A DNA stretch of 40,149 nucleotides from an uncultured Muribaculaceae bacterium (GCA_964649555.1 CAZYQA010000001.1:1-40149); one strand, 5' to 3'. Counted from the stretch's first letter, positions 22,070 to 39,812 are shown. Notes: generated from the sequence alone by a model not told the origin. Numbers and translations are program-made.

Positions 22070-22845
22070 AGCGCTAGAATGGAGTGTTTTACGATATATC
22101 CGTGAAGTTTTTATCCCTGAATATGCTAAGAACTTCAACAAAGGATTATCGACAGAGGATATAAAGTTTTACGGTAAAATCTATCTCGACCGTGAACGCT
22201 CCGATAATGAACAGAATCTACACTGTTATTTAATTATCAGCCGTAAAGACTAAGCCAATAAAAAGAAACTATCTCCGCTTACTAACCATAAGAACACAAA
22301 GAAAGGCACGGTTACAGGCGGTTTTGACCGTGTGAAGCTATTTCAACAAGCGGAGCAGGGCTTCTAAGCTATTCCGTTATAATCGCCAACAAACAGAATC
22401 GTTTGACTACTGCAACACGATGAAAAATGGCACTATATCCGAGCAACTCCATTTGCAAGAGCAGGTTATCAACTCTAGTGAAATGAAAAATAGTAGCCAA
22501 GAAAACTTGTTAGCTGATATACCAGAAAACAAGGTTACAGATAAACCAGTTTACAACCTTGAAAATCTTCAAACTACCAAGCAATCATACAGCCAACCTG
22601 AAAATGAAACCTCGTTAGGTTCTTTAATCTCTTTCACTTCATCGGGAGCGGATTATCTGCCTAATGAGAGTCTAACGGATGAAGAGCTTCGCAAACTCAA
22701 AAACGCAAACGTAAGAAAGGCAGGAAAATGTAATGTATTCCTTCTTTTTATCTGTAAACAAAGGTCTATTTCGGGAATAAAACGGCAACACCAAGCCCTG
22801 CGGGTTTTGGGGAATTTCTTCCTTTCTCGTGCCTCAAAAGAGTAA
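22070..22845 (+). pseudogene. Decayed Bacteroides-type mobilization/relaxase-family gene (5'-truncated, with an in-frame stop and a frameshift)
   Basis: The frame opening at about 22070 reads ...REVFIPEYAKNFNKGLSTEDIKFYGKIYLDRERSDNEQNLHCYLIISRKD then TAA (22251-22253). It continues ANKKKLSPLTNHKNTKKGTVTGGFDRVKLFQQAEQGF. It then needs a +1 shift near 22365 to reach KLFRYNRQQTESFDYCNTMKNG..., which is the 22420..22845 ORF. The (H)..IISRKD and GGFDR motifs resemble Bacteroides Mob proteins. The N-terminal part is missing. Confidence 0.55.
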
Positions 22846-23061
22846 ATTTCCCAAAAGTATTGCCTTATTTATGCCCTTCATAGTTTGGGTGTTTACCAGA
22901 TAAAAAAGGAAAAATATAAGCAGTGGGTTAGAGCCATATAGGACAACAAACGCCATTGCCGCATAGTGCATACTCAATTTTCAAACCGCCCTGTTTTTAT
23001 CTCTTTCTTTGCTGTAAATCATTGCAATGAAAAGAGTTTATAACGCTAAAACAGTAAGAAT

Positions 23062-23334
23062 ATGGAAATTGTAGCCATCGAAAAAAGAACCTTTGAACAG
23101 CTGATGCAGAGGTTCGATGATTTTGTCAAACAGGTAAATGTACTTTGTGGAGATAATCGCAAAGCTGATAACTGGTTAGACAACAAACAGGTTTGTGAAT
23201 TGCTAAAAATATTGCTCCGCACCCTGCAAACATACCGAGATACGGGAAAGTTGCCATTTTCGCAAATTGGGCGTAAATGCTATTACAAGGCTACCGACAT
23301 CGAACAGTTTATCAATCGGGCATCGACCAAATAA
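23062..23334 (+). CDS. Helix-turn-helix (excisionase/MerR-like HTH_17) DNA-binding protein
   Basis: 90 aa. Reads WLDNKQVCELLKI..RTLQTYRDTGKLPFSQIG.K.YYK..DIEQFI. It is a clear homolog of the 30216..30500 product. Confidence 0.8.
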   Translation: MEIVAIEKRTFEQLMQRFDDFVKQVNVLCGDNRKADNWLDNKQVCELLKILLRTLQTYRDTGKLPFSQIGRKCYYKATDIEQFINRASTK

Positions 23335-23342
23335 TCACAGTT

Positions 23343-23621
23343 ATGGAAAGAGAATATTTTGATTTAAGTGTTTTGGTTGGGAATTGGGAGAGCGTTAATC
23401 TGAACCCAACTGTGATGATATACAACAACGTTAATAGCTGCCTATTAAGCATTATCTATATGAACGAAACCACCAGACAAGCAAGTCCATCAACCTATGA
23501 GATTCAGGAGGACGAGCAGGGCTATTTTATATCGCTGAACGGCAAACGCACCGCTGTTAGTTATGATGTAAGATTAGACACATTAACCATCGCTACGATG
23601 GGCGATTATATACGAAACTAA
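23343..23621 (+). CDS. Small hypothetical protein of the conjugative/mobilizable-element backbone
   Basis: 92-aa ORF starting at ATG 23343 (MEREYFDL...), packed between the two HTH genes. I recognise no motif. The 23277 start in the ORF track overlaps the previous gene. Confidence 0.45.
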   Translation: MEREYFDLSVLVGNWESVNLNPTVMIYNNVNSCLLSIIYMNETTRQASPSTYEIQEDEQGYFISLNGKRTAVSYDVRLDTLTIATMGDYIRN

Positions 23622-23633
23622 AACTACCAAATA

Positions 23634-23903
23634 ATGGATATATTAGACCATAAATCACCGCAAATTTACTCGTTCTTTGAGAGTCTGAACGAGCTTTCAA
23701 ACGCCATTCAAATAGCACTTAAAAGCCGTACTCCACACCTGAACGGTGAAAAGTATCTCACCAACCGAGAGGTTTGCCAACTACTCCGTATCTCTCCCCG
23801 TACCCTCCAAAACTGGAGGGACACGGGCAAAATTAAGTTTATTCGACTGAATGGTAAGATTCTGTATAGAGAATTAAGTATTTTATTGTCATTAAAACCA
23901 TAA
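23634..23903 (+). CDS. Helix-turn-helix (excisionase-like HTH_17) protein with a divergent, apparently replaced C-terminus
   Basis: 89 aa. Reads LNGEKYLTNREVCQLLRISPRTLQNWRDTGKIKFIRLNGKILYRE, homologous to the 29926..30219 product up to YRE. It then ends in the unrelated LSILLSLKP. Confidence 0.75.
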   Translation: MDILDHKSPQIYSFFESLNELSNAIQIALKSRTPHLNGEKYLTNREVCQLLRISPRTLQNWRDTGKIKFIRLNGKILYRELSILLSLKP

Positions 23904-23923
23904 ACTTTTACATCTAAACATAG

Positions 23924-24949
23924 TTACTTTTCTTCTTGGTCAAGAATATTAGGGTAATTAATATTACCATGCTTATCTTTGATACACGAAACAATTCTTT
24001 CAAGCTCTTGTCCTACTGGTTTTGTTCCTAAATCTGTATTATTTTTATAGATTCCTATTTTCTGTTTAACTTGTTCTTGTTCTAAATTGTTTACAATACA
24101 TCCGATTTTACTATCAAGTATTGCATATTTATGTGCAATGTCAAAAATTTCGTCAGTTCTTATGTCTGTAATGATATACCTGTGAACAACCCGATTCCTC
24201 TGTTTGTACAATTCTTCCAATTCATCATATATTTCTTGAGAAATAATACCTTTATCTCGTGTTTGTTTATATATCTCTCTTTCCATGATTGGCTTATCAG
24301 ATTCAGATTGAAACAAAAGATTTGTATCTATCTCATCGTTTGTATTTTCGAGTTGAGATGTCAATATTATTGAGAGCCTTAGAGAAGCATCAATACTATT
24401 TGCAGATAACACTACATATTCTATAAAAGAATTATTTTCAATTGCTCGATTTTTCAAATCGATTGTAGTTGCTATTGATGCCATGAATAAACCGAATCGC
24501 CTTAATGCAATAACTTTATCTCGGAATTCAGGTTTGATAAATTTGATTGTAGAAAGGGTTTCTCTTACCTTGCGTAACTCTTCATTGTATTTGTCTCTCA
24601 AATTTTCTTTTTTGTCTGTTATCGTATAAGTGGCAAATAAAAAATGGTCATCTACAGCACAAGAAAACATATAAACTTCAATACTATCTAAAATATTGAT
24701 ATTTTCCGAAAATGATAAAGTTTTAGCATCTGAAGATTGCGTAGGTTCATTTCTTACTTTTATTAATTTTGATATATGATCATTTACTGGTTTGCAACTT
24801 ATTTGAAACGCACCTAACATATCATCATATAAACCAAATGATTGAGGGTGATTATCATTTACATTATTATAATAAGTTGGATTTTTGTATTGCCAATCAA
24901 TTGGTATATACATTTGAAATTTACCACTAGGGTCTGTATATAGTTTCAT
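23924..24949 (-). CDS. Hypothetical two-domain protein; the C-terminal helical half carries an RNxxxH (HEPN-like) motif
   Basis: 341 aa. The N-terminal 140 aa or so is an alpha/beta-looking domain (KFQMYIPIDWQY...). The C-terminal half is helical and contains ELEELYKQ-RNRVVH-RY (R251..H256, nt 24182-24199). The gene is visibly more AT-rich than its neighbours and lies 34 nt downstream of an integrase. Confidence 0.55.
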   Translation of the reverse strand: MKLYTDPSGKFQMYIPIDWQYKNPTYYNNVNDNHPQSFGLYDDMLGAFQISCKPVNDHISKLIKVRNEPTQSSDAKTLSFSENINILDSIEVYMFSCAVDDHFLFATYTITDKKENLRDKYNEELRKVRETLSTIKFIKPEFRDKVIALRRFGLFMASIATTIDLKNRAIENNSFIEYVVLSANSIDASLRLSIILTSQLENTNDEIDTNLLFQSESDKPIMEREIYKQTRDKGIISQEIYDELEELYKQRNRVVHRYIITDIRTDEIFDIAHKYAILDSKIGCIVNNLEQEQVKQKIGIYKNNTDLGTKPVGQELERIVSCIKDKHGNINYPNILDQEEK

Positions 24950-24983
24950 ATAATTATTTTCTTACAAAGGTACTATTTTTACA

Positions 24984-26267
24984 TCACTTATAGTACTGAT
25001 TTCTAATAAAATCCTCTGGCACATCATCTTTTGGGAGTTCGTAGCGGTTTTCAATACGACTGGATAAGATTTTCATATCTTCATTGACCTTTTGGTTGGT
25101 AATTTTGGCGTAAATTTGAGTAGTCTGCACGGAACGATGTCCCATCATTTTGCAGAGTGTCTCAATCGGAACTCCTTGTGATATACACACTTGGGTTGCA
25201 TAGGTGTGCCGCCCCATATGATAGCAAAGTCGGCTCGAAATATCGCACTTTTTAGCAATGATTTTTAGGTTCTCATCAATGGTTTTCAAAGTTTTAAGTT
25301 TGAAAATTTTTTCATCCGTTCGCTCGTGTTTATACTTCTCCATTATCTGAATAGCAACACTAAGCGATCGGATTCTACATTCGCTCTTCGTTTTCTGGCG
25401 TTCAATCTTAATCCACATTACCCCGTTATCGTCCGTTGAGATATGCTTTTCGGAGAGGTTACACATATCTGCATACGCCATACCTGTAAACGCAGCAAAG
25501 AGAAACATATCACGGCATCGTTCAAGATGCTTTTCGACTATGGGTGTAGTGAGTAGCTTTTGAAACTCTTCCATCGTTAAGTGCCGACGCTGTTTTAACG
25601 GTTTTTCGGCAACATAATTGGCAAATGGGTCACGTTTGATAATATCCTGACTAATCGCCCGACGAACTATTTTTCGCAAGGGGATAATATGATTCAAAAC
25701 CGTATTGCCATTCATTCGCTTATCAACCCTCAAATGGAAATCGTAGGCATCAATAAACGGATGATTGAGTTGCATAAGCGGTATATCTTCTTTCTGGTAA
25801 CGTGACTTGATAAAGTTTTCGAGCACTCTGTATGAGTGCAGATATTGTTCGTAGGTTACTTGGGTACGATTGACACCTACACGCAGTTTAAATTCATCGT
25901 TGTGTTCTCGAAATAGCTCTAACAATCCAACAGCTTTACGATTCACGCCCATAAGAGCGTTCTTTATCCGTTCAGCAGTAACATAGCCATCTTCTAACAC
26001 TAAATGGTTATAATGTTGCCCTATCTCTGTTTCTAACTTATCTAACGTACGATTCAACGAGATTGATTCTTTGCTCTTGCCAATAGCACGTCCCGACTTA
26101 CTATCCCACCTATCGGGTTCGATATATTGTTGGGTGCTAAATCGGGCTGATTGAGCGTCAACGCTTATTCTGCCTGTAATAACACATAATCCCTGTTTGG
26201 TAATCTTTGATTTGTCGATATAGAATAGCACGGCAAAGGTGCTTCGGATATTTATTTTTGTTTTCAT
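24984..26267 (-). CDS. Tyrosine site-specific integrase (Bacteroides CTn/NBU type; second of a tandem pair)
   Basis: 427 aa. Has an N-terminal arm-binding-like start (STFAVLFYIDKSK...), a SAM-like core-binding region, and catalytic-domain motifs (FAAFTGMAYADM, HMGRHTYAT, LGH.SVQTTQIYAK). Confidence 0.9.
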   Translation of the reverse strand: MKTKINIRSTFAVLFYIDKSKITKQGLCVITGRISVDAQSARFSTQQYIEPDRWDSKSGRAIGKSKESISLNRTLDKLETEIGQHYNHLVLEDGYVTAERIKNALMGVNRKAVGLLELFREHNDEFKLRVGVNRTQVTYEQYLHSYRVLENFIKSRYQKEDIPLMQLNHPFIDAYDFHLRVDKRMNGNTVLNHIIPLRKIVRRAISQDIIKRDPFANYVAEKPLKQRRHLTMEEFQKLLTTPIVEKHLERCRDMFLFAAFTGMAYADMCNLSEKHISTDDNGVMWIKIERQKTKSECRIRSLSVAIQIMEKYKHERTDEKIFKLKTLKTIDENLKIIAKKCDISSRLCYHMGRHTYATQVCISQGVPIETLCKMMGHRSVQTTQIYAKITNQKVNEDMKILSSRIENRYELPKDDVPEDFIRNQYYK

Positions 26268-26280
26268 TGTATGATAATAG

Positions 26281-26476
26281 TTATAATACTACTTGAAACT
26301 TATCCTCGATACGAGATTCTACCCTCTGCATATCTTCGGCAATCTTGTGTTCGGTGATTTTTGCATAAATTTGAGTAGAACGCAAATCACGATGTCCCAA
26401 CATTCGTCTAACACTCTCAATAGGCACTCCTTGCGAGAGGCAAATCTCGGTTGCGTAGGTGTGCCGTAAGCAATGA
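26281..26476 (-). pseudogene. C-terminal fragment of a tyrosine integrase (first gene of the outer element's tandem pair)
   Basis: Family homology covers only HCLRHTYATEICLSQGVPIESVRRMLGHRDLRSTQIYAKITEHKIAEDM.... It ends 13 nt before the next integrase start. The upstream residues MLMPALPCII of the 26281..26505 ORF are not integrase-like. Confidence 0.8.
26470..26476. repeat. Left copy of the 7-bp direct repeat GCAATGA at the integrase break point
   Basis: Identical 7-mer at 39877-39883. Both copies encode the in-frame His-Cys (cat tgc) of the integrase H.xR box on the minus strand. Confidence 0.6.
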
Positions 26477-26612
26477 ATAATACACGGCAAAGCAGGCATA
26501 AGCAAGATGAAGAAAGCTAGCAGGTAATATGTTTGAAATGAGTTAGTTTGCGGTTATTTGCAGTTTTAGAAAAATGAGGAATAAAGCGAAATTATGCGAT
26601 ATTTCCGTTACC

Positions 26613-26624
26613 AAATCGTTAGCT
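26613..26624. repeat. Left copy of the subterminal 12-bp direct repeat AAATCGTTAGCT
   Basis: Identical 12-mer at 39801-39812. The copies lie about 140 bp and about 65 bp inside the proposed element ends. Confidence 0.5.
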
Positions 26625-26725
26625 TATTAGTTACCAACCTGAAACAGGTAACTCATAGCAGATAAAAGAATTGCAAACCAAATACTATTTCGCTGATTCA
26701 CACTATTTTGCATGTCAATGAACGC

Positions 26726-26761
26726 TTGTAAACCCGATAACTTTGCTGTCGAAATATCGAC
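26726..26761 (+). promoter_or_regulatory. Long imperfect hairpin/palindrome just upstream of the first inner-element integrase
   Basis: GATAAC(TT)TGCTGTCG-AAATAT-CGACAGCAGTTATC gives 14 paired positions with a 2-nt bulge. It ends 28 nt before ATG 26790. Confidence 0.4.
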
Positions 26762-26789
26762 AGCAGTTATCACAAAAATTATAAGCGTT

Positions 26790-28019
26790 ATGAAAAACGA
26801 AAAATTCAAGGTATTACTCTACCTCAAAAAGAGTAGCCCCGATAAGTCGGGCAAAGCCCCAATTATGGGGCGTATTACCGTTGGGCGTTCAATGGCTCAA
26901 TTCAATTGCAAAATCTCTTGTGCACCCACACTCTGGAATCCCCGAGAGAGCCGATTAAATGGCAAATCAAAAGTGGCGGTAGCCACTAATGCCAAGTTGG
27001 ATAAGTTACTGCTATCAATTAACGAGGCTTACAACTCACTCTTGGAACGTAAGCAACAATTCTCGGCAACCGATGTAAAGGAACAGTTTCAGGGAAGTGT
27101 AGAGACTCAAATGACTCTGCTCAGACGATTGGTGTTATACACTGATGACTTAAAATCTCGTGTAGGTGTTGATGTTGCCAAAGGAACCATTCCGAATTAT
27201 CACTACACTCATAAATCTCTTGTCGAATTCATCAAACTAAGGTTCAATGTTTCGGATATGGCATTCGGGCAACTCAACGAACAGTTTATTCGGGATTATC
27301 AAGATTTTTGCTTGATGGATAAAAGTTTGGCTATGGACACTGTACGCCACTACTTGGCTATTTTGAAGAAGATTTGTAAGATGGCATTCAAAGAAGGTGC
27401 ATCCGAGAAGTGCCATTTTGCACATTACAAACTACCTAAACAAAAAGAGAGTACCCCTAAAGCCCTCTCTCGTGAGGACTTTGAAAAGATACGAGACCTT
27501 GATATCCCAAAGCAGAGAACTTCGTATGTTATAACAAGAGACCTTTTTCTTTTTGCCTGTTATACGGGTACTTCGTATGCCGACACGGTGTCTATTACCG
27601 AAGATAACCTTTCCAGAGACGATAATGGTGAATTATGGCTAAAATACCGCCGAAAGAAAAATGAGATGTTGGCACGGGTAAAACTACTACCCGAAGCATT
27701 AGACCTGATAGAGAAGTATAAGAGTTCGGATCGTGATACACTTTTTCCTGTACAACATTATGCTACTCTTAGAGCCAATATGAAAGGTCTTCGGGTAATG
27801 TCGGGAATGAAAGAAGATTTGGTCTACCATGCCGGAAGGCACTCATTTTCGAGTCTTATCACATTAGAGCAGGGAGTACCCATTGAGACTATCAGTCGCA
27901 TGCTTGGTCATAGTAATATTAAGACTACCCAAGTGTACGCCCGTGTGACCCCGAAGAAACTATTTGAGGATATGGATAAGTTTATCGAAGCAACACAAGA
28001 TTTAGTATTAACCCTATAA
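26790..28019 (+). CDS. Tyrosine site-specific integrase (inner element, first of tandem pair)
   Basis: 409 aa counted from ATG 26790 (MKNEKFKVLLYLKKSS...). Motifs: FACYTGTSYAD, HAGRHSFSS, LGHSNIKTTQVYARV. The extension to 26712 in the ORF track is not family-like. Confidence 0.9.
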   Translation: MKNEKFKVLLYLKKSSPDKSGKAPIMGRITVGRSMAQFNCKISCAPTLWNPRESRLNGKSKVAVATNAKLDKLLLSINEAYNSLLERKQQFSATDVKEQFQGSVETQMTLLRRLVLYTDDLKSRVGVDVAKGTIPNYHYTHKSLVEFIKLRFNVSDMAFGQLNEQFIRDYQDFCLMDKSLAMDTVRHYLAILKKICKMAFKEGASEKCHFAHYKLPKQKESTPKALSREDFEKIRDLDIPKQRTSYVITRDLFLFACYTGTSYADTVSITEDNLSRDDNGELWLKYRRKKNEMLARVKLLPEALDLIEKYKSSDRDTLFPVQHYATLRANMKGLRVMSGMKEDLVYHAGRHSFSSLITLEQGVPIETISRMLGHSNIKTTQVYARVTPKKLFEDMDKFIEATQDLVLTL

Positions 28020-28030
28020 TATTAAAAGCG

Positions 28031-29233
28031 ATGCGTAGCACATTTTCTATATTATTCTATATCAATAGAAACAAAGTAAAAGCAGACGGCACAACTGCCG
28101 TTATGTGTAGAATCTCCATAGATGGCAAAATATCGGTTCTCTCAACGGGCGTAAACTGCAATCCCGAACATTGGAAACTAGAGAGTAAAAACAACAAAGA
28201 GTTACTAAAATTACGAACCACCATTGAGCAGACATACGATAAAATACTCAAAGATACAGGTGTTGTCAGTGCAGAACTGCTGAAAAATACCATTGTAGGG
28301 GTAAATGCAGTACCTACGACTTTGTTACAAGCAGGAGAGGTTGAGCGGGAGCGGTTAAGACTTCGTTCAATTGAGATAAAATCAACATCATCACATAGAC
28401 AAAGTAAGACAACCCAACTAAATCTGAGCGATTATATTCAATCTCGTGGATTGATAGATATACCATTTGCGGATATTACAGAGGAGTTCGGAGAGTCTTT
28501 TAAGGTTTTTCTAAAACGTGAGCGAGATTACAGTGCTTCACATATTAACCATTGTCTTTGCTGGTTAAATCGGCTTATTTACATAGCAGTAGATCAAGAG
28601 ATAATTCGCTACAATCCATTGGAGGAGGTAAAATACGAGAAGAAGAAAGCTCCACAGATACGCCATATTACACGCAATCAACTAAAACAGTTGATGCAGA
28701 CCCCGATGCAAGACAAGATGATGGAACTTGCCAGACGGATGTTTATCTTTTCATCGTTCTGTGGTTTGGCTTATGTGGATATATTAAGGCTCTATCCGCA
28801 CCATATCGGCAAAGCATCTGATGGTAGACTCTATATCCGTCAGAAGCGAGGCAAGACTAAGGTAGAGGCCTTTGTTCCACTGCATCCCATTGCCGAGCGA
28901 ATACTTATGATGTACAACACCACCGATGAAACAAACCCAGTATTTCCACTTCCAAATAGAGATTTGCTTTGGCGAGATATTAACGCCATCGGAATAGCCT
29001 TTGGATTTAAGCAGAACCTTTCGCATCATCAAAGTCGGCACACGTTCGGAACTCTCTTACTTTCAGAGGGTATTTCGATTGAAAGTATTGCCAAGATGAT
29101 GGGGCATACAAATATTTCGAGCACTCAAGTTTATGCAAAAGTTACCGATGATAAAATTTCAGAGGATATGGATAAACTTATCCAAAGACGCAAAACAATG
29201 AAAAATGATGTAAATAACACGACACAATTATGA
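28031..29233 (+). CDS. Tyrosine site-specific integrase (inner element, second of tandem pair)
   Basis: 400 aa. Reads STFSILFYINRNK..., FSSFCGLAYVD, HQSRHTFGT, MGHTNISSTQVYAKV. Starts 11 nt after the previous integrase. Confidence 0.9.
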   Translation: MRSTFSILFYINRNKVKADGTTAVMCRISIDGKISVLSTGVNCNPEHWKLESKNNKELLKLRTTIEQTYDKILKDTGVVSAELLKNTIVGVNAVPTTLLQAGEVERERLRLRSIEIKSTSSHRQSKTTQLNLSDYIQSRGLIDIPFADITEEFGESFKVFLKRERDYSASHINHCLCWLNRLIYIAVDQEIIRYNPLEEVKYEKKKAPQIRHITRNQLKQLMQTPMQDKMMELARRMFIFSSFCGLAYVDILRLYPHHIGKASDGRLYIRQKRGKTKVEAFVPLHPIAERILMMYNTTDETNPVFPLPNRDLLWRDINAIGIAFGFKQNLSHHQSRHTFGTLLLSEGISIESIAKMMGHTNISSTQVYAKVTDDKISEDMDKLIQRRKTMKNDVNNTTQL

Positions 29234-29592
29234 AAAGAAATGTAATTACAATCAGCGATAACGATAAAATAACCGTTCCTGATAATATAAAAATGAATAT
29301 CACTGAAATTTCCCATCTTTTTGGACTATACTACCAACAAACTAAAAAGGCCATCCGAGAGATTGAAAAATCAAATATAGCACAAGGTGATTTTTCTACT
29401 GGCGGAGAAGTCGAAAACTCTAAGATTTACCCTGATTACTACGGATTGGATATGGTTATTGGGGTAGCTTTTAGAGTAAACACCTATGAGGCAGATGTTT
29501 TTAGAAAATGGATATTAAAGCGAATAACTATCCACCAAAAACAATCACCGCATATATTTATCCAACTACCATCAACTCAAATTTTCAACTAA
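29230..29592 (+). CDS. RhuM-like small DNA-binding protein (N-terminal RhuM-type region only)
   Basis: 120 aa. Its ATG overlaps the integrase stop (ATGA). ITEISHLFGLYYQQTKKAIREIEKSN and YYGLDMVIGVAFRVNTYEADVFRKWI resemble the conserved N-terminal region of RhuM family proteins. Confidence 0.5.
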   Translation: MKRNVITISDNDKITVPDNIKMNITEISHLFGLYYQQTKKAIREIEKSNIAQGDFSTGGEVENSKIYPDYYGLDMVIGVAFRVNTYEADVFRKWILKRITIHQKQSPHIFIQLPSTQIFN

Positions 29593-29835
29593 TGAAATAT
29601 ATTTTTAAATAATGCCCCAATCGGGTGCACTCATTTTCGTATGCAGGGCAAAGATTGTTTCGGTAGAGAGAACATTCAAGTTCAAGCCCTTGTAGGGTTA
29701 CGACTGAAATCTCCACACCTTCGCTTTAGCTTCGGGTTGTATTTAAGTCGTAAAACTTGCCTGTACACTCTCCCTACACAAGAGAAGCCCCTGCAACGAA
29801 AACGACCGACCCGACAATGACGCATAGTTCCAATA

Positions 29836-29875
29836 ACAGAAAAAGCACATCTTAAGAAAGATATGCTTTTTCTGT
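29836..29875. terminator. Hairpin between convergent RhuM-like and HTH genes (likely bidirectional terminator)
   Basis: Perfect 12-bp stem ACAGAAAAAGCA (29836-29847) / TGCTTTTTCTGT (29864-29875), with further pairing possible inside the loop. It lies about 50 nt downstream of the 29926 stop on the minus strand. Confidence 0.5.
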
Positions 29876-29925
29876 TTAATGCGTCTGCAACTTCAACTCC
29901 CTTACCTCTAAATCTGCATAGATTA

Positions 29926-30219
29926 TCATTTACGTGCCTTAATATAGTGTTTTGATAACATCTCTTGTATATCACTCTCTGCATACAAACACTTGCCTCT
30001 TAAAGCAATATAAGCTATTTTTCCTTCTGTGCGCCAATCCTGTAGAGTACGCCTGCTTACTTTCAATCTTGCCGACACTTCTCGGTCGGTTAGATAAGTT
30101 TCACCATTTAGGGATACCTTACGGTTGTTGGTTAACTTTTCAATGCTTGCCAAAATTCTATCAAGCGTTTTTACAAACCCAAGCACTTGCGGATTCTCTT
30201 TTGTTATAATTGTACTCAT
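29926..30219 (-). CDS. Helix-turn-helix (excisionase-like HTH_17) protein
   Basis: 97 aa. Reads LNGETYLTDREVSARLKVSRRTLQDWRTEGKIAYIALRGKCLYAESDIQEML. Overlaps the upstream HTH gene by 4 nt (ATGA). Confidence 0.8.
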   Translation of the reverse strand: MSTIITKENPQVLGFVKTLDRILASIEKLTNNRKVSLNGETYLTDREVSARLKVSRRTLQDWRTEGKIAYIALRGKCLYAESDIQEMLSKHYIKARK

Positions 30220-30500
30220 ACCTTTTTCTGTTTTAATCGGTTAATTACTTGCTCTACATCTTCAGGGCGATAGAACATCTTATGCCCAACCTCGCTAAAC
30301 GCTAAAGTTCCGTTGTCTCTATATGTTTGAAGCGTTCTTTTTGAGATACTGAGTATCTCGCACACATCCTGATTATCGAGCCACTTTTGCAGGCTCTTAT
30401 CTTCACTGTTTTTACATAGAATTTCGACCCTCTGGGCAATGGCATCAAGCTTCGCCATCATCATCTCCCAAGCTTGGGATTCTACATTGATTATTTCCAT
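30216..30500 (-). CDS. Helix-turn-helix (excisionase-like HTH_17) protein
   Basis: 94 aa. Reads WLDNQDVCEILSISKRTLQTYRDNGTLAFSEVGHKMFYRPEDVEQVI. Homolog of the 23062..23334 product. Confidence 0.8.
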   Translation of the reverse strand: MEIINVESQAWEMMMAKLDAIAQRVEILCKNSEDKSLQKWLDNQDVCEILSISKRTLQTYRDNGTLAFSEVGHKMFYRPEDVEQVINRLKQKKV

Positions 30501-30700
30501 AATTTATATCATTTAATTGGTTTGACTTCTATTTCTAAAAGCAAAGAAATAATGAAAAATTAAGCAAACAATGGGTTTCTGGAAAGTGGCAGCTTGTGGC
30601 GTCAGAATGGAAGTGATTGGCGTTAGAGCCAGGGAAAGTGTCAAAACGGAATCATAGATTCAAATACTAACTCTATTGTATCGCTCAATCATTGTAGACG

Positions 30701-31443: not shown

Positions 31444-31767
31444 ATGGCTAAAAAGAAATATACACAACAAGAGGAGCAGTTGGCACGTTTCGCAAAAGCG
31501 TTAGGTCATCCTGCACGTATTGTTATATTGAAATTCTTAGCTGCGCAAGATAGTTGCTTTTTTGGCGACATACACGAGGTGCTGCCTATTGCTAAGGCTA
31601 CTGTGTCACAACACTTGACGGAATTGAAAAATGCAGGATTGATTCAAGGTGAGATTCAACCACCAAAGGTAAGATATTGCATTAATCTTGAGAATTGGAT
31701 GTTAGCAAAATCTCTATTTTCTGAGTTTTTGAAAGAAGATAAGACACATAAAGGTTGTTGTAAGTAA
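31444..31767 (+). CDS. arsR: ArsR/SmtB family metalloregulatory repressor
   Basis: 107 aa. Winged-HTH pattern LARFAKALGHPARIVILKFL....SCFFGDI.EVLPIAKATVSQHL.ELKNAGLI. Cysteines at positions 38, 79, 105 and 106 (C-terminal GCCK). Confidence 0.85.
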   Translation: MAKKKYTQQEEQLARFAKALGHPARIVILKFLAAQDSCFFGDIHEVLPIAKATVSQHLTELKNAGLIQGEIQPPKVRYCINLENWMLAKSLFSEFLKEDKTHKGCCK

Positions 31768-31786
31768 TAACTATTTTTTGTAAATT

Positions 31787-31807
31787 ATGTTCGTAGTTTT
31801 GCGAACT
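31787..31807 (+). promoter_or_regulatory. Operator-like palindrome, site 2, overlapping a TAnnTTTG -7 box
   Basis: ATGTTCGTAGTTTTGCGAACT with embedded TAGTTTTG (31794-31801). Lies between arsR and the Trx-like gene, about 60 nt upstream of ATG 31868. Confidence 0.55.
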
Positions 31808-31867
31808 ACAAACAACAAAAAGGAGTGATTTATATTGAATTATAATAATTTAAATAAGAACAAAACA

Positions 31868-32101
31868 ATGGAAATTAAAGTATTGGGAACTGGCTGTGCA
31901 AGTTGCAAGGCTCTCCATGAAACAGTTAAGCAAGCAGTCGCAGAATTGGGTATTGAGGCTACAGTAATCAAAGAAGAAGATTTGATGCAGATTATGAACT
32001 ACAACGTTATGTCAATGCCGGGATTAGTAATTGACGAAAAAGTAGTTTCGGCAGGTAAGAAACTATCTGTTGCAGATGTAAAATCATTATTAACCAAATA
32101 A
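31868..32101 (+). CDS. Small thioredoxin-fold protein (TM0996/MTH895 glutaredoxin-like, redox-active disulfide protein type)
   Basis: 77 aa from ATG 31868. Reads MEIKVLGTGCASCKAL... with a CxxC near the N-terminus and a MSMPGLVIDEKVV.(S)G segment. This family is commonly linked to ArsR and DUF318 permease genes. Confidence 0.75.
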   Translation: MEIKVLGTGCASCKALHETVKQAVAELGIEATVIKEEDLMQIMNYNVMSMPGLVIDEKVVSAGKKLSVADVKSLLTK

Positions 32102-32111
32102 ACTATCTACA

Positions 32112-32546
32112 ATGAAAAAGATATTATTTGCTTTGATAGCTATCCTAACTCTATCTTCTTGTGGCAATAGCCAAAATGCAAATGCTCAATCTTCTGCAAA
32201 ATCTACACAGAAAGATATTATAGAGGTTCTATATTTTCATGGCAAACAACGATGCATCACTTGTAATGCCATCGAAAAACTAACAAAAGAGGTTGTAGAA
32301 AAAGATTTTGCCGAGCAAGTCAAAGATGGTAAAATAGTATTTAAGGTTATAGACATTTCAACAAAAGAGGGCGAAAAGGTAGCAGATAAATACGAGGTTA
32401 CTTGGTCGTCGCTGTTTATTAATAAATGGAAGGACGGAAAAGAGTCTAAAAACAATATGACTGATTTTGGTTTCTCTTACGCAAAAAACTCACCAGACGT
32501 TTTCAAAGCAGGAGTAAAGAAAAAGATTGATGAACTTCTTAAATAA
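32112..32546 (+). CDS. Thioredoxin-fold lipoprotein with CxxC motif (CITC)
   Basis: 144 aa. Has a lipobox (LSSC), then EVLYFHGKQRCITCNAIE.... Confidence 0.6.
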   Translation: MKKILFALIAILTLSSCGNSQNANAQSSAKSTQKDIIEVLYFHGKQRCITCNAIEKLTKEVVEKDFAEQVKDGKIVFKVIDISTKEGEKVADKYEVTWSSLFINKWKDGKESKNNMTDFGFSYAKNSPDVFKAGVKKKIDELLK

Positions 32547-32554
32547 TTTGGTTC

Positions 32555-33265
32555 ATGGAGTTTTTACAATCTCTTTTAGAAAATAGCAATATGCCGATTG
32601 TAACGGCTTTTCTGCTTGGAATTTTAACCGCAATAAGTCCGTGTCCATTAGCTACTAATATCACGGCAATAGGATATATAAGCAAAGAGTGCGGAGCCGC
32701 ACGGGCAATTTTTTGGAGGGGCATACTCTATACGGTTGGTCGTGTTATCACCTATACAGTCTTAGGATTTATCATTATCCCGATTTTACGAGAGGGTGCG
32801 AGTGTGTTTGCTTTGCAGAAAGTAATCTCTAAATATGGTGAGATGCTGATAGCTCCTGCTCTGATTTTAATTGGACTATTTATGCTTTTTGGAAGCAAAC
32901 TAAACTTACCTAAATTTGGATTTAGCGGTAATGGAAGCGATAAGCTAAAACAAAAAGGAAGTTGGGGAGCATTGATGCTTGGTGTATTGTTTTCATTAGC
33001 ATTCTGTCCTACAAGCGGCGTATTCTACTTTGGAATGTTGATGCCGATGTCGGCAGCAGAAACGGGTGGTTATCTATTGCCTGTTGTTTTTGCTATTGCT
33101 ACGGGATTGCCCGTTATTATAGTTGCTTGGATATTGGCATATAGCGTAGCCGGACTGGGTAAATTCTATAACCGCATACAAGTATTTCAAAAATGGTTCT
33201 CAAAGATAGTTGCTATTCTATTTATTGCAGTGGGTATTTATTACGCAATCATGTTTTATCTATAA
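32555..33265 (+). CDS. CcdA/DsbD-family transmembrane thiol:disulfide electron-transfer protein
   Basis: 236 aa with about 6 TM helices. One Cys sits in each of two helices next to Pro (AISPCPLA and LAFCPTSG), as in CcdA-type transporters. Confidence 0.7.
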   Translation: MEFLQSLLENSNMPIVTAFLLGILTAISPCPLATNITAIGYISKECGAARAIFWRGILYTVGRVITYTVLGFIIIPILREGASVFALQKVISKYGEMLIAPALILIGLFMLFGSKLNLPKFGFSGNGSDKLKQKGSWGALMLGVLFSLAFCPTSGVFYFGMLMPMSAAETGGYLLPVVFAIATGLPVIIVAWILAYSVAGLGKFYNRIQVFQKWFSKIVAILFIAVGIYYAIMFYL

Positions 33266-33277
33266 AAAATATCATAA

Positions 33278-33733
33278 ATGAAAGTATTGATTCTCTGTAC
33301 AGGTAACAGTTGTCGTAGTCAAATGGCACACGGTTTTTTACAATCGTTTGACAAGGATTTGATTGTTTGTTCGGCAGGAACAAAAGCGGCAGGAAAGCTC
33401 AACGAAGGAGCAGTAAAGGCGATGGCTGAGGTTGGTGTTGATATTTCGGAACACACTTCAGATTCGGTTGAAAAGTATCTTGGTGATCAGTGGGATTACG
33501 TGATTACAGTCTGTGGTGGAGCTAACGAGAGTTGTCCAACGTTCACAGGAGATGTAAAACACCGCATACATATCGGTTTTGACGATCCATCGCACGCCGA
33601 AGGAACACCCGAATTTATCGAGAGTGAGTTTCGTCGTGTAAGAGATGAGATTAAAAATCGTTTCTACGAATTTTATATCAAAGAGATTCGCAAACAAGAG
33701 TTACCAAAGTGTTCTTGTGGCGGTAACTGCTAA
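33278..33733 (+). CDS. arsC: Arsenate reductase, LMW-PTP/thioredoxin-coupled type, with a Cys-rich C-terminal extension
   Basis: 151 aa. Has the P-loop ILCTGNSCRSQMA and the second Cys pair VITVCGGANESCP. An extra tail ends ...PKCSCGGNC. Confidence 0.9.
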   Translation: MKVLILCTGNSCRSQMAHGFLQSFDKDLIVCSAGTKAAGKLNEGAVKAMAEVGVDISEHTSDSVEKYLGDQWDYVITVCGGANESCPTFTGDVKHRIHIGFDDPSHAEGTPEFIESEFRRVRDEIKNRFYEFYIKEIRKQELPKCSCGGNC

Positions 33734-33745
33734 TCAATTATAAGT

Positions 33746-34789
33746 ATGGAAAAGAAACAAGGCATAGGCTTTTTTGAACGATACCTGACGATTTGGGTAG
33801 CTCTGTGTATCGTTGTGGGAATTGGCATAGGTCAATACATCCCTATTATACCCGATACGTTAAGTAAATTTGAGTATGCTAACGTGTCGATACCTGTAGC
33901 AATACTGATTTGGTTGATGATCTATCCGATGATGCTTAAAGTCGATTTTCAGAGTGTGAAAAATGTAGGAAAGCGACCCAAAGGCATTATGATAACCTGT
34001 GTTACCAATTGGTTGATTAAGCCTTTTACGATGTTTGGTATTGCGTGGTTATTCTTTTTTGTGATTTTCAAAGCATTGATTCCTGCGGATTTGGCAAATG
34101 AATACCTGGCAGGTGCGGTACTACTTGGTGCAGCTCCATGTACGGCGATGGTCTTTGTGTGGAGTTATCTAACAAAAGGAGATGCCGCTTATACACTTGT
34201 GCAGGTTGCCGTAAATGACTTGATTATCCTTGTGGCATTTGCCCCTATTGTAGCATTCTTGTTGGGCGTTGGTGGTGTAACGATTCCTTGGGACACGTTA
34301 TTGCTATCAGTTGTGCTGTTTGTGGTAATTCCGCTATCGGCAGGTGTACTGACTCGCGCGTCGATAGTAAAACGCAAAGGTATAGAGTACTTCAATAATG
34401 TATTTGTGAAGAAGTTTGACAATTTCACAATTGGTGGACTGCTTTTGACATTGGTGATTTTGTTCTCGTTTCAGGGGGAAACAATACTCAATAATCCACT
34501 ACACATTCTTTTGATAGCTGTACCACTGATAATCCAAACAGTAATGATTTTCTTTGTTGCCTATGGTTGGTCTAAAGCGGCAAAATTACCTCACAATATA
34601 GCTGCTCCGGCAGGAATGATTGGTGCGAGTAACTTCTTTGAGTTGGCGGTTGCCGTTGCCATATCACTGTTCGGTCTGCAGTCGGGAGCTGCACTTGCTA
34701 CGGTGGTAGGTGTATTGGTTGAAGTTCCTGTTATGTTAATGTTGGTTCGTATCGCAAACAATACACACAGGTGGTTCCCTGCAAAGTAA
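33746..34789 (+). CDS. acr3: ACR3 family arsenite efflux transporter
   Basis: 347 aa, polytopic. Reads [23 protein letters not shown], and P...[14 protein letters not shown]. Confidence 0.9.
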
Positions 34790-34817
34790 GTCAAATCTTA
34801 AAACAATAATAAATAGT

Positions 34818-35567
34818 ATGAAATCATTAAAAACAATTTTAATGCTATTAGCAGTGTCGTTTTCTGTAATGAGTTGTTCTGCACAAAAGAGTAATGATAC
34901 AGTAAAGGAACAATTAGCTAAGGCAAAGGAGAAAGAAAATACCGTATTCATGGTAGTAACGGATAGTAAAACACCTGCTGATAAGCTAACCCAACTTATA
35001 ACGGAAGCTACGCAAGAGTTATCGCAAACACAAATTATCCAAATGAACGCAGACGATGAAAAGAATGCTGAATTGGTTAAAGAGTATAGACTTAGTGGAG
35101 CACCGATGCCACTTGTACTTCTTTTCTCAAATAAAGGATTAATGTTGGGCGGAATGATGGAAGAACAAGTAACAAAAGAAAATATTGTTAATGCTATTCC
35201 TACTCCTAAATATAGCGAAATTACGTTTGCACTAAGTCAAGGAAAACCTGTATTGGCGATTGTCTCAAACAGTAAATTCAAAAACGATAAAGCGGCAAAA
35301 GAAGTTTGTAATACAGCAAATAAGGAGATGAACGATAAAGCCGAAATAATTGTGATTGACACCGAAGATGCCAAAGAGAGTAAGTTGATAGAGATGCTTA
35401 ATATTAAAGTGAAATTAGAGGATAGCTTTATAGTAGCCATTAACGGACAAGGAATTATGTCTGGACGCTTCGATGTTATACCAACGAAGGAAGATTTAAT
35501 CGCTGCAGCAACAAAAGTAGTACAAAGTGGTTGTGCTCCGGGTGGCTGTGGACCGACTTGTGATTAG
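34818..35567 (+). CDS. Hypothetical lipoprotein: two tandem thioredoxin-fold-like repeats without CxxC, plus a Cys-rich C-terminal tail
   Basis: 249 aa. Has a lipobox (VMSC). An internal duplication is visible (ENTVFMVVTDSK... versus GKPVLAIVSNSK...). The tail is SGCAPGGCGPTCD. Confidence 0.5.
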   Translation: MKSLKTILMLLAVSFSVMSCSAQKSNDTVKEQLAKAKEKENTVFMVVTDSKTPADKLTQLITEATQELSQTQIIQMNADDEKNAELVKEYRLSGAPMPLVLLFSNKGLMLGGMMEEQVTKENIVNAIPTPKYSEITFALSQGKPVLAIVSNSKFKNDKAAKEVCNTANKEMNDKAEIIVIDTEDAKESKLIEMLNIKVKLEDSFIVAINGQGIMSGRFDVIPTKEDLIAAATKVVQSGCAPGGCGPTCD

Positions 35568-35574
35568 TCTATAA

Positions 35575-35600
35575 TTTAGCCACAATAATATGTGGCTAAA
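35575..35600 (+). terminator. Hairpin after the lipoprotein gene (possible terminator/attenuator between the two modules)
   Basis: Perfect 10-bp stem TTTAGCCACA / TGTGGCTAAA with a 6-nt loop, 8 nt after the stop codon. No clear U-tract follows. Confidence 0.45.
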
Positions 35601-35612
35601 AATTTAAAAACA

Positions 35613-35633
35613 ATGTTCGTATAAATACGAACT
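35613..35633 (+). promoter_or_regulatory. Operator-like palindrome, site 3
   Basis: ATGTTCGTATAAATACGAACT. Here the palindrome extends to GTTCGTAT-AA-ATACGAAC. It ends 16 nt upstream of ATG 35650. Confidence 0.55.
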
Positions 35634-35649
35634 AAATAATAATAAAAAC

Positions 35650-36153
35650 ATGAGTAAAAAAAGAATTATTGGAACAACGTCAGTAGGAATACTATCTTCG
35701 ATACTGGCATTTTTAGGGGTGGTTTCATGTTGCGGACTACCCATCATAGCCGGAGCATTAGCTTGGCTTGGAATCGGAGCTTCACAACTTAGCTTCTTTG
35801 CAGAATATCGTCCGATATTTATCGGCATTGCCATTGTTGCCCTTCTATTTGGATTTTGGCAAGTCTATTTCAAAAAGAAATCTTCTTGTTGTTCTACAAC
35901 CTCTTGTTGCGGAACTCCGAGCGAAGAAGAAAAACCATCAAAATCAAATCTATTTCAAAAGATTTTTTTGTGGATAGGAGCAATCGTAATTGTATTGATG
36001 CTTATTCTGGGAGAACAGAATGCTCCCGCAGAGCAACAAAACAATCCCCTATCACCTCAAATTCAGTTGCAGAACAGCTCTTCAGGTTGTTGTCCTTCTG
36101 AACCTGTACAAGAAACAAAAAAAGAACAATCGGGTTGTTGCCCTCAACAATAA
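35650..36153 (+). CDS. MerT-family-like membrane protein with extra Cys-rich loop and tail
   Basis: 167 aa. TM1 has a vicinal CC (VVSCCGLPIIAGAL). AEYRPIFIGIAIVALLFGFWQVY parallels the MerT EPYRPLFIGAALVAL... segment. The cytoplasmic loop reads SCCSTTSCCG. A third TM helix is present, and the tail carries SSGCCPSE and SGCCPQQ. Confidence 0.65.
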   Translation: MSKKRIIGTTSVGILSSILAFLGVVSCCGLPIIAGALAWLGIGASQLSFFAEYRPIFIGIAIVALLFGFWQVYFKKKSSCCSTTSCCGTPSEEEKPSKSNLFQKIFLWIGAIVIVLMLILGEQNAPAEQQNNPLSPQIQLQNSSSGCCPSEPVQETKKEQSGCCPQQ

Positions 36154-36159
36154 AATAAA

Positions 36160-37071
36160 ATGAATACACTTTTAGATACATTACAGTATTTCGTGCTTAT
36201 CACGCTGGAGTTGATAGCACTCTTTATGCTCATTAGTGCCATCGTGGAGATTATATTGATGTATATTCCACAAGAGACGATCCGTAAAAAATTGTCGGGC
36301 AAAGGTATCACAGGAAATGTTTTAGGAGCTGTTTTTGGCTCACTAACTCCATTTTGTGCATGCTCTACAATTCCTATGACCGTAGGTTTCCTCAATGCAG
36401 GAGTGCCGTTTGGGTCAGTTATGTCGTTTCTTATCTCCTCTCCACTTCTAAACCCTATCATCATCGGAATGTTAGGTGCATTGGTTGGTGTGAAAGCCGC
36501 TATCATCTATTTCGCTATTGCGTTTGTCTGCTCGGTAGCATTTGGAATTATATTGGAAAAGATGGGCGGCATCAAGTATGTAAAAAACGTACGAGTTAAA
36601 CCAAGTTGTTGTTGTAACGGAGCTGCCGAAGAGGTGGTTGATAAACGAGCATTGCCATTTGGTCAAAAGGTGAAACTTGCATTTAAAGCTGCGTGGGATA
36701 GCCTACGTCCTATTATGGGTTATCTGCTTATTGGTGTTGCTCTTGGTGCAGGTATATATGGATATATGCCTGAAGATTTTGTAGTAAAAATTGCAGGAAG
36801 TGACAACTTGTTTGCAGTACCTATTGCGGCGATTTTAGGAGTTCCGCTTTATATTCGTGCCGAAACTGCTATTCCTATTGGTTTGGCTTTGATGGGTAAA
36901 GGTATGAGTATCGGGGCTGTTGTCGCATTGATTATCGGCGGTGCAGGTATGGCAATCCCTGAAATGACAATGCTCGCCAGCATTTTCAAGAAGAAACTTG
37001 TAGCAATGATTGTTATAACAATTTTCTTGACTGCGGTTATTGGAGGTTATTTGTTTAACGTATTACTATAA
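36160..37071 (+). CDS. DUF318/ArsP-type predicted permease
   Basis: 303 aa, polytopic. Reads SLTPFCACSTIPMTVGF and SSPLLNP, has a central loop with PSCCCNG, and its second half repeats the fold. Confidence 0.75.
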   Translation: MNTLLDTLQYFVLITLELIALFMLISAIVEIILMYIPQETIRKKLSGKGITGNVLGAVFGSLTPFCACSTIPMTVGFLNAGVPFGSVMSFLISSPLLNPIIIGMLGALVGVKAAIIYFAIAFVCSVAFGIILEKMGGIKYVKNVRVKPSCCCNGAAEEVVDKRALPFGQKVKLAFKAAWDSLRPIMGYLLIGVALGAGIYGYMPEDFVVKIAGSDNLFAVPIAAILGVPLYIRAETAIPIGLALMGKGMSIGAVVALIIGGAGMAIPEMTMLASIFKKKLVAMIVITIFLTAVIGGYLFNVLL

Positions 37072-37083
37072 AAATATAAAATC

Positions 37084-37266
37084 ATGGAAGATAAAAAGGA
37101 AAAGAAAGGTTTTTGGGCTTCATTATTCACCCCTAAATCATGCGATTGTTGTTGTGGTACTCAAATCGAAGAGGTCACAGAAGAGGATGCTCAACAAGTA
37201 GAGCAAGAAAAACAGGAAGATAAAAAAGAGGATAAACCGACCTGCGATTGTGGAGGTAATTGTTAA
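37084..37266 (+). CDS. 60-aa Cys-rich acidic peptide (candidate metal/metalloid-binding protein)
   Basis: MEDKKEKKGFWASLFTPKSCDCCCGTQIEE...KPTCDCGGNC. Eight Cys fall in two clusters separated by an E/Q/K-rich linker. The gene is packed between two permease genes. Confidence 0.5.
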   Translation: MEDKKEKKGFWASLFTPKSCDCCCGTQIEEVTEEDAQQVEQEKQEDKKEDKPTCDCGGNC

Positions 37267-37283
37267 TTGATTTAGAAAGTAAT

Positions 37284-38710: not shown

Positions 38711-38758
38711 GCTAAAATCAAAATCGAGAAATAGAATGTAAACACACCTGTAAAAAAT

Positions 38759-39800: not shown

Positions 39801-39812
39801 AAATCGTTAGCT
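39801..39812. repeat. Right copy of the subterminal 12-bp direct repeat AAATCGTTAGCT
   Basis: Identical to 26613-26624. Confidence 0.5.

Follow-up and report, generated by a model that had tools for sequence, protein, structure and literature searches.

Two nested tandem-integrase elements in an uncultured Muribaculaceae bacterium, and a variable gene slot where their operons converge

Introduction

The 40,149-nucleotide contig CAZYQA010000001.1 from an uncultured Muribaculaceae bacterium (GCA_964649555.1), called the window throughout this article, is one whole contig of a 2.7-Mb genome in 484 contigs. It carries two integrative elements, one nested in the other, each with a pair of integrase genes in tandem, and these are members of a described kind, the MTnPi1-3 type (Naito 2016, PMC4755523). 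A sequence-only reading had proposed that the two elements share one module order in mirror image, and that the gene directly after the second integrase occupies a position at which cargo is swapped. This article follows up that proposal, with particular attention paid to where the variable position lies and to how the two elements came to face each other.

Within each pair, the first-position integrase is called IntA and the second-position integrase IntB ("A" and "B"), and the suffixes _in and _out designate the inner and the outer element. Relatives were collected by scanning one genome per species, which gave about 600 matches to IntB_in, the best 80 of which were retained as loci (L and a number). 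L095, a metagenome contig reached only via the HEPN-like protein of the outer element, holds an intact relative of that element. No exact match to IntB_in is on record in public assemblies, and a search of 40 related genomes for close relatives of IntB_out gave nothing above 37% identity. The window's own genome contains at least four further tandem integrase pairs, making at least five in all.

The common module of the two elements

The open reading frames (ORFs) listed in the sequence-only reading are all present at the coordinates it gave, and they are collected with the other features in Table 1. The three full-length integrases, IntB_out, IntA_in and IntB_in, each carry the domains Arm-DNA-bind_5 (PF17293), Phage_int_SAM_5 (PF13102) and Phage_integrase (PF00589), all above threshold, which is the architecture of IntDOT and IntN1. 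Their sequences show box II (HxxRH) as well as the Tyr motif, and direct reading finds Arg I replaced (TGTSYAD, CGLAYVD and TGMAYAD), as is presumably also the case in IntDOT. A fourth ORF, 26281-26505(-), comprises just the C-terminal ~65 residues of an integrase. The two genes of a pair are separated by 13 nt in the outer and 11 nt in the inner element, exactly as had been reported. Both pairs are thus tandem integrases of the MTnPi1-3 type, the first gene of the outer pair being split.

Table 1. Features of the two nested elements and their junctions, in window coordinates.
Feature	Position	Strand	Evidence or remark
Decayed mobilization region, outer element	22091..22845	+	DUF5712 remnants with in-frame stops
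Promoter-like TTTG box	23004..23013	+	49-58 nt upstream of HTH1
HTH1, excisionase-type HTH_17, outer element	23062..23334	+	PF12728, 46 bits; 85% identical to L095 HTH1
DUF3876 protein, optional member of HTH operon	23343..23621	+	PF12992, E 2.8e-23; same place in L095, L101, L048, L077
HTH2, excisionase-type HTH_17, outer element	23634..23903	+	Pfam; 3' end is the right slot edge
HEPN-like slot occupant, two-domain protein	23924..24949	-	G+C 0.289; HepT-like just below threshold
IntB_out, second-position integrase of outer element	24984..26267	-	Pfam three-domain architecture; tree: B clade, beside L095 B integrase
IntA_out C-terminal piece, box II onward	26281..26476	-	Severed by inner element; Pfam, tblastn, L095 blastn
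Left GCAATGA junction repeat (His-Cys codons of box II)	26470..26476	+	Position at break point
Arm-type-like motif GCTAACGATTTGG, near left end of inner element	26611..26623	-	Motif search
IntA_in, first-position integrase of inner element	26790..28019	+	Pfam; integrase tree
IntB_in, second-position integrase of inner element	28031..29233	+	Pfam; integrase tree
RhuM-like 120-aa protein, third gene of integrase operon	29230..29592	+	Start overlaps IntB_in stop by 4 nt
Empty slot of inner element, 333 bp between convergent 3' ends	29593..29925		Inverted-repeat search
HTH2', inner element	29926..30219	-	Pfam, blastp
HTH1', inner element	30216..30500	-	Pfam, blastp
Promoter-like TTTG box	30540..30549	-	40-49 nt upstream of HTH1'
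Cargo of inner element	31444..39598	+	Pfam
Arm-type-like motif GCTAACGATTTAG, near right end of inner element	39799..39811	-	Also near right end of both Segatella copri elements
IntA_out N-terminal part, runs off contig	39877..40149	-	Right GCAATGA copy at 39877-39883

In a maximum-likelihood tree of 112 integrases, the A and B proteins separate on a single branch (SH-aLRT 98) with one change per label, a value as low being reached by none of 500 label shuffles, and the sub-clades of the two halves run in parallel. Because the A and B clades are separate and their sub-clades parallel, the tandem pair must be ancient, and IntA and IntB of one window element are orthologous to those of the other. 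The common gene order therefore reflects homology and not coincidence, and the proposal of two integrative elements built on one homologous module is borne out by the tree together with the Pfam and blastp results.

Converging on the integrase operon from the other side is a second operon that encodes two small helix-turn-helix (HTH) proteins. All four of these in the window match HTH_17 (PF12728) at 41.6-46 bits against a cut-off of 27, the TIGR01764 excisionase domain staying below threshold, and as small HTH_17 proteins encoded beside an integrase they can be called excisionase-type. The pairwise homology claimed for them holds in blastp: HTH1 and HTH1' are 45% identical (E 3e-30), HTH2 and HTH2' 44% (E 7e-23), and the HTH1-HTH2 cross pairs are weaker (E 1e-8 to 1e-13). 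A PDB sequence search with HTH1 returned no match. The small ORF between HTH1 and HTH2 of the outer element encodes the DUF3876 protein and, judging from L095, its start is probably at 23343 rather than 23277.

The 10-mer TTTCTTTGCT that had been noticed upstream of both HTH1 genes has exactly two copies in the window, against 0.24 expected. TTTG lies 36-58 nt before the HTH1 start codon in 26 of 45 distinct upstream regions (shuffles: mean 3.4, maximum 10), and the peak of the TTTG(C) motif falls 42-47 nt before the start codon of HTH1 homologues. Because TTTG recurs in this way, the 10-mer looks like the promoter of the HTH operon, conserved by function; it also resembles what we take to be the Bacteroidetes -7 promoter box, TAnnTTTG.

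The layout of IntA, IntB, an optional RhuM-like gene and then convergent HTH2 and HTH1 is found in about 35 of 49 tandem loci, with hosts that include Bacteroides, Phocaeicola, Prevotella, Segatella, Dysgonomonas, Parabacteroides, Porphyromonas, Alistipes and Muribaculaceae. Contig C144 of the window's own genome has the full module with the RhuM-like ORF, adjoining two ORFs that, judged by eye from the sequence, resemble relaxase and MobA genes. Among Prevotella elements, the identities of the A and B integrases disagree in the pairs L015/L024, L021/L025 and L022/L025 (for example 94% for the first and 83% for the second integrase, against 84% and 90%), which suggests recombination between the integrase genes of different elements.

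Insertion of the inner element into the integrase gene of the outer one

The missing N-terminal half of the split integrase was sought by tblastn: there is none beside HTH1', and there is one at the end of the window. There, the minus-strand ORF running from 40149 to 39811 reads ...NIERRLIYHCGR, after which the integrase similarity ends, and in the fragment running from 26505 to 26281 the similarity begins at the break in ...IIHCLR/HTYATEICLSQGVPIES.... The IntA_out halves themselves read ...RLIYHCGR and HTYATE... on the two sides. L095 provides the uninterrupted counterpart, with IntA (407 aa), IntB (429 aa) and the HEPN-like gene followed on the opposite strand by HTH2, DUF3876, HTH1, a 134-aa gene and DUF5712. 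By blastn, its positions 1305-1588 correspond to window 40149-39866 and 1581-5339 to window 26466-22731, with an 8-bp overlap at the break, and when the piece 26281-26476 is joined to 39877-40149 the product is 88% identical to the L095 IntA.

The inner element is accordingly 26470-39883, 13.4 kb long, lying antisense in the box-II (HxxRH) codons of IntA_out. Nesting had been proposed correctly, as both halves of IntA_out align to one L095 gene. The extent of ~26.7-30.5 kb first given for the inner element was too short, the N-terminal half of the "split Int" being the ORF at 39811-40149(-). The mirror image is real too, although it is no design feature: it follows from the insertion of one element, antisense, in the integrase gene of the other.

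The heptamer GCAATGA is copied at both junctions, and L095 is equivalent to the empty site. By itself the heptamer was rejected as evidence, with 15 copies in the window against ~8 expected, so the junction rests on the comparison with L095. Both junctions have CATTGC in common and then differ in the next seven nucleotides, GGAAGAC (target-like; L095 has GGGCGAC) and TTACGGC. These heterologous 7-nt stretches beside a conserved TTGC-type core have what we take to be a parallel in the coupling sequences of CTnDOT-type recombination. No tRNA gene that could serve as attachment site lies within the window.

The left end of the inner element recurs in 14 related ones, and GTTACC...GGTAAC inverted repeats are conserved there. 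The arm-like motif GCTAACGATTTRG occurs twice in the window against 0.12 expected, once near each end of the inner element and both times on the minus strand. In its longer form, GCTAACGATTTRG(W)AACG, it stands in direct orientation, with further copies at L081 12638-12655, L082 8919-8936 and L016 6584-6601; these are candidate arm-type binding sites for the integrase.

A third gene of the integrase operon

What then is the gene that directly follows the second integrase? Taken literally, the sequence-only reading made this a single swappable position, with the RhuM-like gene of the inner element and the HEPN-like gene of the outer one as alternative cargoes. In the window it is indeed the sole position at which the two modules differ, and RhuM-family genes elsewhere are often accessory genes. 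The relatives make this very unlikely. A hidden Markov model (HMM) built from 17 RhuM-like copies finds 33 ORFs in the fetched loci, each directly 3' of a B integrase or its remnant, and three copies likewise placed in the window's own genome (29230-29592, C144 and C268). The gene follows IntB in most relatives and is translationally coupled to it: among 21 scored cases, 11 show a 4-nt overlap of its ATG with the IntB stop, and most of the rest lie within 21 nt. It also co-varies with the backbone. Where extra genes are found, they are placed after it (L002, L020-22, L068 and L072). The RhuM-like gene is therefore a conserved core gene of the integrase operon and not cargo.

The label itself needs some care. 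The family is ~120-130 aa long with a conserved Asn at its end and aligns with the N-terminal part of RhuM. The RhuM profile (PF13310) gives the window protein 24.9 bits against a cut-off of 33.7, over positions 19-52 of 252 only. The resemblance to the RhuM N-terminus thus stands, and membership in the RhuM family does not. An AlphaFold model from a 32-sequence alignment (pLDDT 83) has a helix-turn-helix, a beta hairpin and two helices, and the top PDB matches of a fold search are the winged helices of MerR, MarR, TniQ and RacA, none of them significant; the protein is predicted to be a winged helix. Away from the integrase pairs of the same genome, a 341-aa ORF on contig C243, 1747-2772(-), matches the RhuM-like HMM at E 6e-14 and is presumably a full-length RhuM-type protein.

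A variable slot between the convergent operons

Because the RhuM-like gene is core, the slot is to be placed in the convergent intergenic region after it, or after IntB where it is absent. A variable slot, bounded by the integrase operon and by HTH2 converging on it, exists family-wide. What had been claimed as a cargo position downstream of the tandem integrases thus survives as a variable position, but not as the gene after the second integrase itself. The gene content 3' of IntB was catalogued in the relatives, as the earlier reading had suggested, and the loci fall into classes by the distance from the IntB stop to HTH2: ~100-200 bp and geneless (12 loci), ~490-720 bp with the RhuM-like ORF alone (12), and 1.6-7.3 kb with extra genes (11), to which come loci with at least 5 kb of other genes and HTH2 beyond the fetched DNA (8). 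Unrelated genes, 1-7 kb of them, thus occupy the slot in at least 19 relatives. In some clades the genes after the integrases belong to the backbone (primase, DUF3408, DUF5712).

When related backbones are compared, homology breaks off sharply at two points, the 3' end of IntB (or of the RhuM-like gene) and that of HTH2, and the DNA enclosed by them is unrelated. In L021 and L022, whose proteins are 82-88% identical, the slots measure 6.7 kb and 3.4 kb; in L029 and L031 (81%), 3.5 kb and 3.6 kb; in L037, L039 and L041 (95%), 1.4-2.2 kb; and in L048, L068 and L072 (80%) the slot holds nothing, 1 kb and 5.3 kb, respectively.

Defence-type genes recur among the contents: a TOTE AEP-helicase (L010), NACHT with NA-iREase2 (L029), a CBASS cyclase with SAVED-HNH (L002) and a 1097-aa ResIII/DEAD helicase (L021). 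In Parabacteroides acidifaciens (L034, 9191-15003), AbiLi (E 2e-67), a HerA-containing system (E 1e-176) and further genes of unknown function stand together in what reads from its gene content as a small defence island. PADLOC also matched AbiU and PDC-S22 somewhere among the loci. Other slots hold plainly different genes, such as ABC/C39 exporters, radical SAM enzymes, GT20 with GH15, an outer-membrane barrel (L072), a KilA-N protein (L068) and a papain-like protein (L016). With conserved core genes as flanks, unrelated content in related backbones and known defence systems among that content, the slot adds a new, well-delimited case to the known principle of such hotspots.

The occupant of the outer slot and the decay of the outer element

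In the outer element the slot is occupied by a single gene, that of the HEPN-like protein, with spacers of 34 and 20 nt on its two sides and a G+C content of 29% against ~38-40% around it. Between the window and L095 this gene is 93.4% identical in nucleotides, as against 76% for IntB, 77% for HTH2, 75% for DUF3876 and 79% for HTH1, and the spacers on both of its sides cannot be aligned. Since purifying selection cannot hold synonymous sites at 93.4%, the cargo is younger than the backbones that carry it. The HEPN-like gene is true cargo, and this comparison is the most direct evidence for swapping.

The sharp slot edges, and these unrelated spacers, might also be expected of integron-like capture, in which the tandem integrases would place cassettes site-specifically into a secondary attachment site 3' of the operon that encodes them. 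The same idea was raised for the B. fragilis transposon TnNimB1 by its authors, who found no experimental support for cassette behaviour (PMC13597742). As an integron-type cassette platform the slot was rejected, and we consider such capture very unlikely: no repeated attC-like or core-like motif is seen at the slot edges, the contents are multi-gene, on either strand and 1 to 7 kb long, and the integrases have the arm-binding domains typical of element integrases.

The HEPN label too has sub-threshold profile matches behind it, the scores being below cut-off in both Pfam (22.7 against 23.5 bits) and NCBIfam (24.6 against 60 bits). It finds better backing in the motif and the fold. R251, N252 and H256 (RNxxxH, conforming to the Rx4-6H motif) do not vary among 15 homologues, the most distant of them at 30% identity. 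In an AF2 (AlphaFold) model (pLDDT 81.6) an N-terminal domain with a PsbP/Tsi3/DcrB-like fold is followed by a C-terminal domain of helices, for which HepT (7bxo_F, target-normalised TM-score 0.63) and 2q00 (0.57) are fold matches. The best overall PDB match is the uncharacterised BT_1490 (3hlz; E 5e-6), and a PDB sequence search with the HEPN-like profile gave none. No nucleotidyltransferase gene that would make a HEPN/HepT toxin with MNT antitoxin lies adjacent, the PsbP/Tsi3-like domain being fused at the N-terminus instead. A role as a single-protein RNase toxin or abortive-infection gene is plausible.

About 120 homologues of the HEPN-like protein were found, also in other contexts: next to DUF5712 (L102), in the chromosome of Fulvivirga, and, at 75% identity, beside DUF5677 and AbiJ_NTD3/AAA ATPase genes (L105 and L106). 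In L101, a 61%-identical homologue (6001-7017) stands between the HTH1 and DUF5712 genes, and the slot after the integrases contains an unrelated 356-aa protein; this position suggests that the family has a second site for cargo.

The rest of the outer element has decayed. Positions 6040-6383 of L095, inside DUF5712, correspond by blastn to window 22432-22091, and homology stops at 22091. The ORF "orf141" (22420-22845) is a chimeric leftover that matches the DUF5712 of L101 and of L037, L039 and L041. Of a relaxase or mobilization gene, only this DUF5712 remnant with stop codons is left, where L095 retains DUF5712. With its IntA split, its DUF5712 interrupted by stops, the 134-aa gene of L095 lost by deletion and no homology beyond 22091, the outer element is a dead remnant. 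To the left of both elements, a minus-strand operon at 12530-21851 encodes an OmpA-like barrel, DUF6562, three Lcl_C-domain proteins and a TPR protein; it is apparently chromosomal flank and has no homology to L095.

The empty slot and the distant cargo of the inner element

The inner element was said to carry its cargo directly after IntB. Its slot is in fact empty, apart from a hairpin with 19-nt arms at 29835-29876, and the cargo lies beyond HTH1' in the form of ars and thiol-redox operons: ArsR, thioredoxin-like proteins, a DsbD-like protein, ArsC, ACR3, a MerT-like protein, two ArsP permeases and an AraC regulator. Among the ORFs of at least 88 aa scanned at 31.4-39.6 kb, none has a relaxase or primase domain, the stretch at 30.5-31.4 kb being unscanned for domains; that stretch has no ORF of at least 100 aa. 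Within the 900 bp of non-coding DNA between HTH1' and arsR, a 24-bp tandem duplication (TGAATCTTTACGACAGTACGACAA twice) occupies 30701-30748. It could be a regulator-binding or an oriT-like region, seeing that no relaxase was found in the element.

A clade that probably enters integrase genes

The position of the inner element is not an isolated case. Its clade was defined by an IntA at least 64% identical to that of the window, and 12 of 15 scored elements of this clade have a C-terminal integrase fragment directly next to them, on the opposite strand (the window, L003, L004, L005, L007, L008, L009, L011, L033, L034 and L081, and by tblastn L010), as against 0 of 31 in other tandem clades. 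The fragments start at H/Y-x-x-R-H (HMM position 1-4), 280-320 bp upstream of IntA, and are otherwise intact. Since their sequences differ greatly, they must derive from the targets. The mirror-image arrangement recurs in L034 and L011.

Both halves of the interrupted gene are in hand for three insertions, that of the window and two in Segatella copri G8. The latter are elements of ~12 kb (L081, chromosome 405700-420200) and ~19.8 kb (L008 with L082, 2426849-2454800), each of which splits a different integrase gene at ..TFHCS/RHTFAT... and has the N-terminal half at its far end. In these halves the PF00589 match ends at profile position 130 of 172, where the C-terminal fragments begin. One of the two elements also contains two ORFs whose N-terminal sequences resemble, by eye, IS110-type transposase genes.

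On these data, it is somewhat probable that the inner clade consists of "integrase hunters", which would use box II of the integrase genes of other elements as attachment site, enter in a fixed orientation, disarm the resident and so yield mirror pairs. Rivalry with the trapped element, or piggy-backing on it, as a consequence is speculation. The head-to-head integrase operons and the weak inverted repeats inside the integrase genes might instead suggest that the mirror-image pair arose within a single element, by inverted duplication or as a shufflon-like segment that can invert. This view is rejected as next to untenable: the modules are only 26-45% identical in protein, the repeats are just homologous coding sequence (72-79%), IntA_out is cut cleanly in two and each half matches the one intact L095 gene, and the head-to-head arrangement recurs with unrelated target integrases in at least 12 other genomes. 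In the literature on elements that target integrase genes, a single anecdote was found, an element inserted in the integrase gene of a degraded mobilizable transposon (MTn) (PMC4755523).

Relation to known systems

MTnPi1, 2 and 3 (and 6, 7 and 9) of Prevotella intermedia resemble the window elements in their two unlike tandem integrases at one end, their excisionase gene, their variable accessory genes and their Bacteroidales hosts. Their relaxase and primase genes have counterparts here in L095, L018 and L026, among other relatives, and their attachment cores, TTAC/TTGC-N5-AA, resemble the TTGC plus 7 nt of the window junction (PMC4755523). They differ in that the paper defines no conserved slot, RhuM-like third gene or paired HTH_17 genes, and in having mobilization genes, which the inner element of the window is without. 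The likeness is one of description, and the published MTnPi2-left primer has no match in the fetched loci.

CTnDOT and NBU1 are similar in the arm-binding, SAM_5 and catalytic domains of the integrase and in two tandem small HTH excision proteins (PMC3809561). They have one integrase instead of two, whereas here an HTH operon converges on a tandem integrase operon. In CTnDOT, Xis2c and Xis2d are small HTH proteins needed for excision that also activate transfer genes (PMC3809561); HTH1 and HTH2 are likened to them as functional analogues only. TnNimB1 of MTnBf8 likewise has an integrase, a RhuM-like gene and cargo in succession (int2, rhuM, a hypothetical gene, nimB and sugE), and it differs in its single integrase and in that no HTH_17 pair is described; the likeness is one of gene order (PMC13597742). 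No Exc or topoisomerase gene of the CTnDOT kind was found in the window elements.

Two further systems bear comparison. The hotspots of P2/P4 and of the integrative and conjugative elements of the SXT type are presumably like the slot, in that core genes flank a variable region with anti-phage and unknown genes and the cargo differs between near-identical backbones. They belong to other element families, and the slot here is where the integrase operon and the excisionase operon converge by their 3' ends. The Tn554 family of Firmicutes hosts presumably combines tandem TnpA and TnpB tyrosine recombinases with a small third protein, TnpC, of ~120 aa. Tn554 insertion is site- and orientation-specific. 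This is a resemblance, and no membership is claimed.

Discussion

The best explanation overall, and one that we hold to be highly probable, is that the window contains nested elements of the MTnPi1-3 type with homologous modules and with a slot at their convergent 3' ends, which is filled by HEPN-like cargo in the outer element and empty in the inner one. Under this explanation, accessory genes would accumulate and be exchanged where the 3' ends of two convergent operons meet, a place that may be permissive because an insertion between two convergent terminators disturbs neither operon. The A and B integrases would act together in recombination, for which the sole support is the observation on MTnPi1-c; tandem-integrase MTns excise as circles, and a copy without the downstream integrase did not (PMC4755523). 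The HTH_17 pair may serve as recombination directionality factors or as regulators, in the manner of Xis2c and Xis2d, and the winged helix of the RhuM-like protein as a DNA-binding accessory or directionality factor. Cargo might be swapped by recombination between co-resident related elements through their conserved flanks.

Several points weigh against this explanation. The spacers around the HEPN-like gene cannot be aligned, which is not how a simple tract of homologous recombination through the flanking genes would look. No relaxase having been found in the inner element, the label "mobilizable" can be only tentative for it. For the RhuM-like fold, the best PDB match (E 0.07) falls short of significance. 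Defence genes are conspicuous in the slot, yet many of its genes are of unknown function or plainly not defensive. The 80 loci, finally, are the top matches to IntB_in and no random draw from the ~600.

Gut and oral Bacteroidales abound in tandem-integrase elements. The landmark between the 3' end of the integrase gene, or of the RhuM-like gene, and the convergent HTH_17 gene allows accessory and candidate anti-phage genes to be harvested, and it separates core genes from cargo in annotation. The move of the RhuM-like gene from cargo to core corrects what is likely to be a recurring mis-annotation, in which the small "RhuM" after the integrases is taken for cargo or for a virulence gene. Of the two leads, the way in which the inner clade targets integrase genes is the more out of the ordinary: if confirmed, it would be an unusual case of mobile elements that target one another's mobility machinery.

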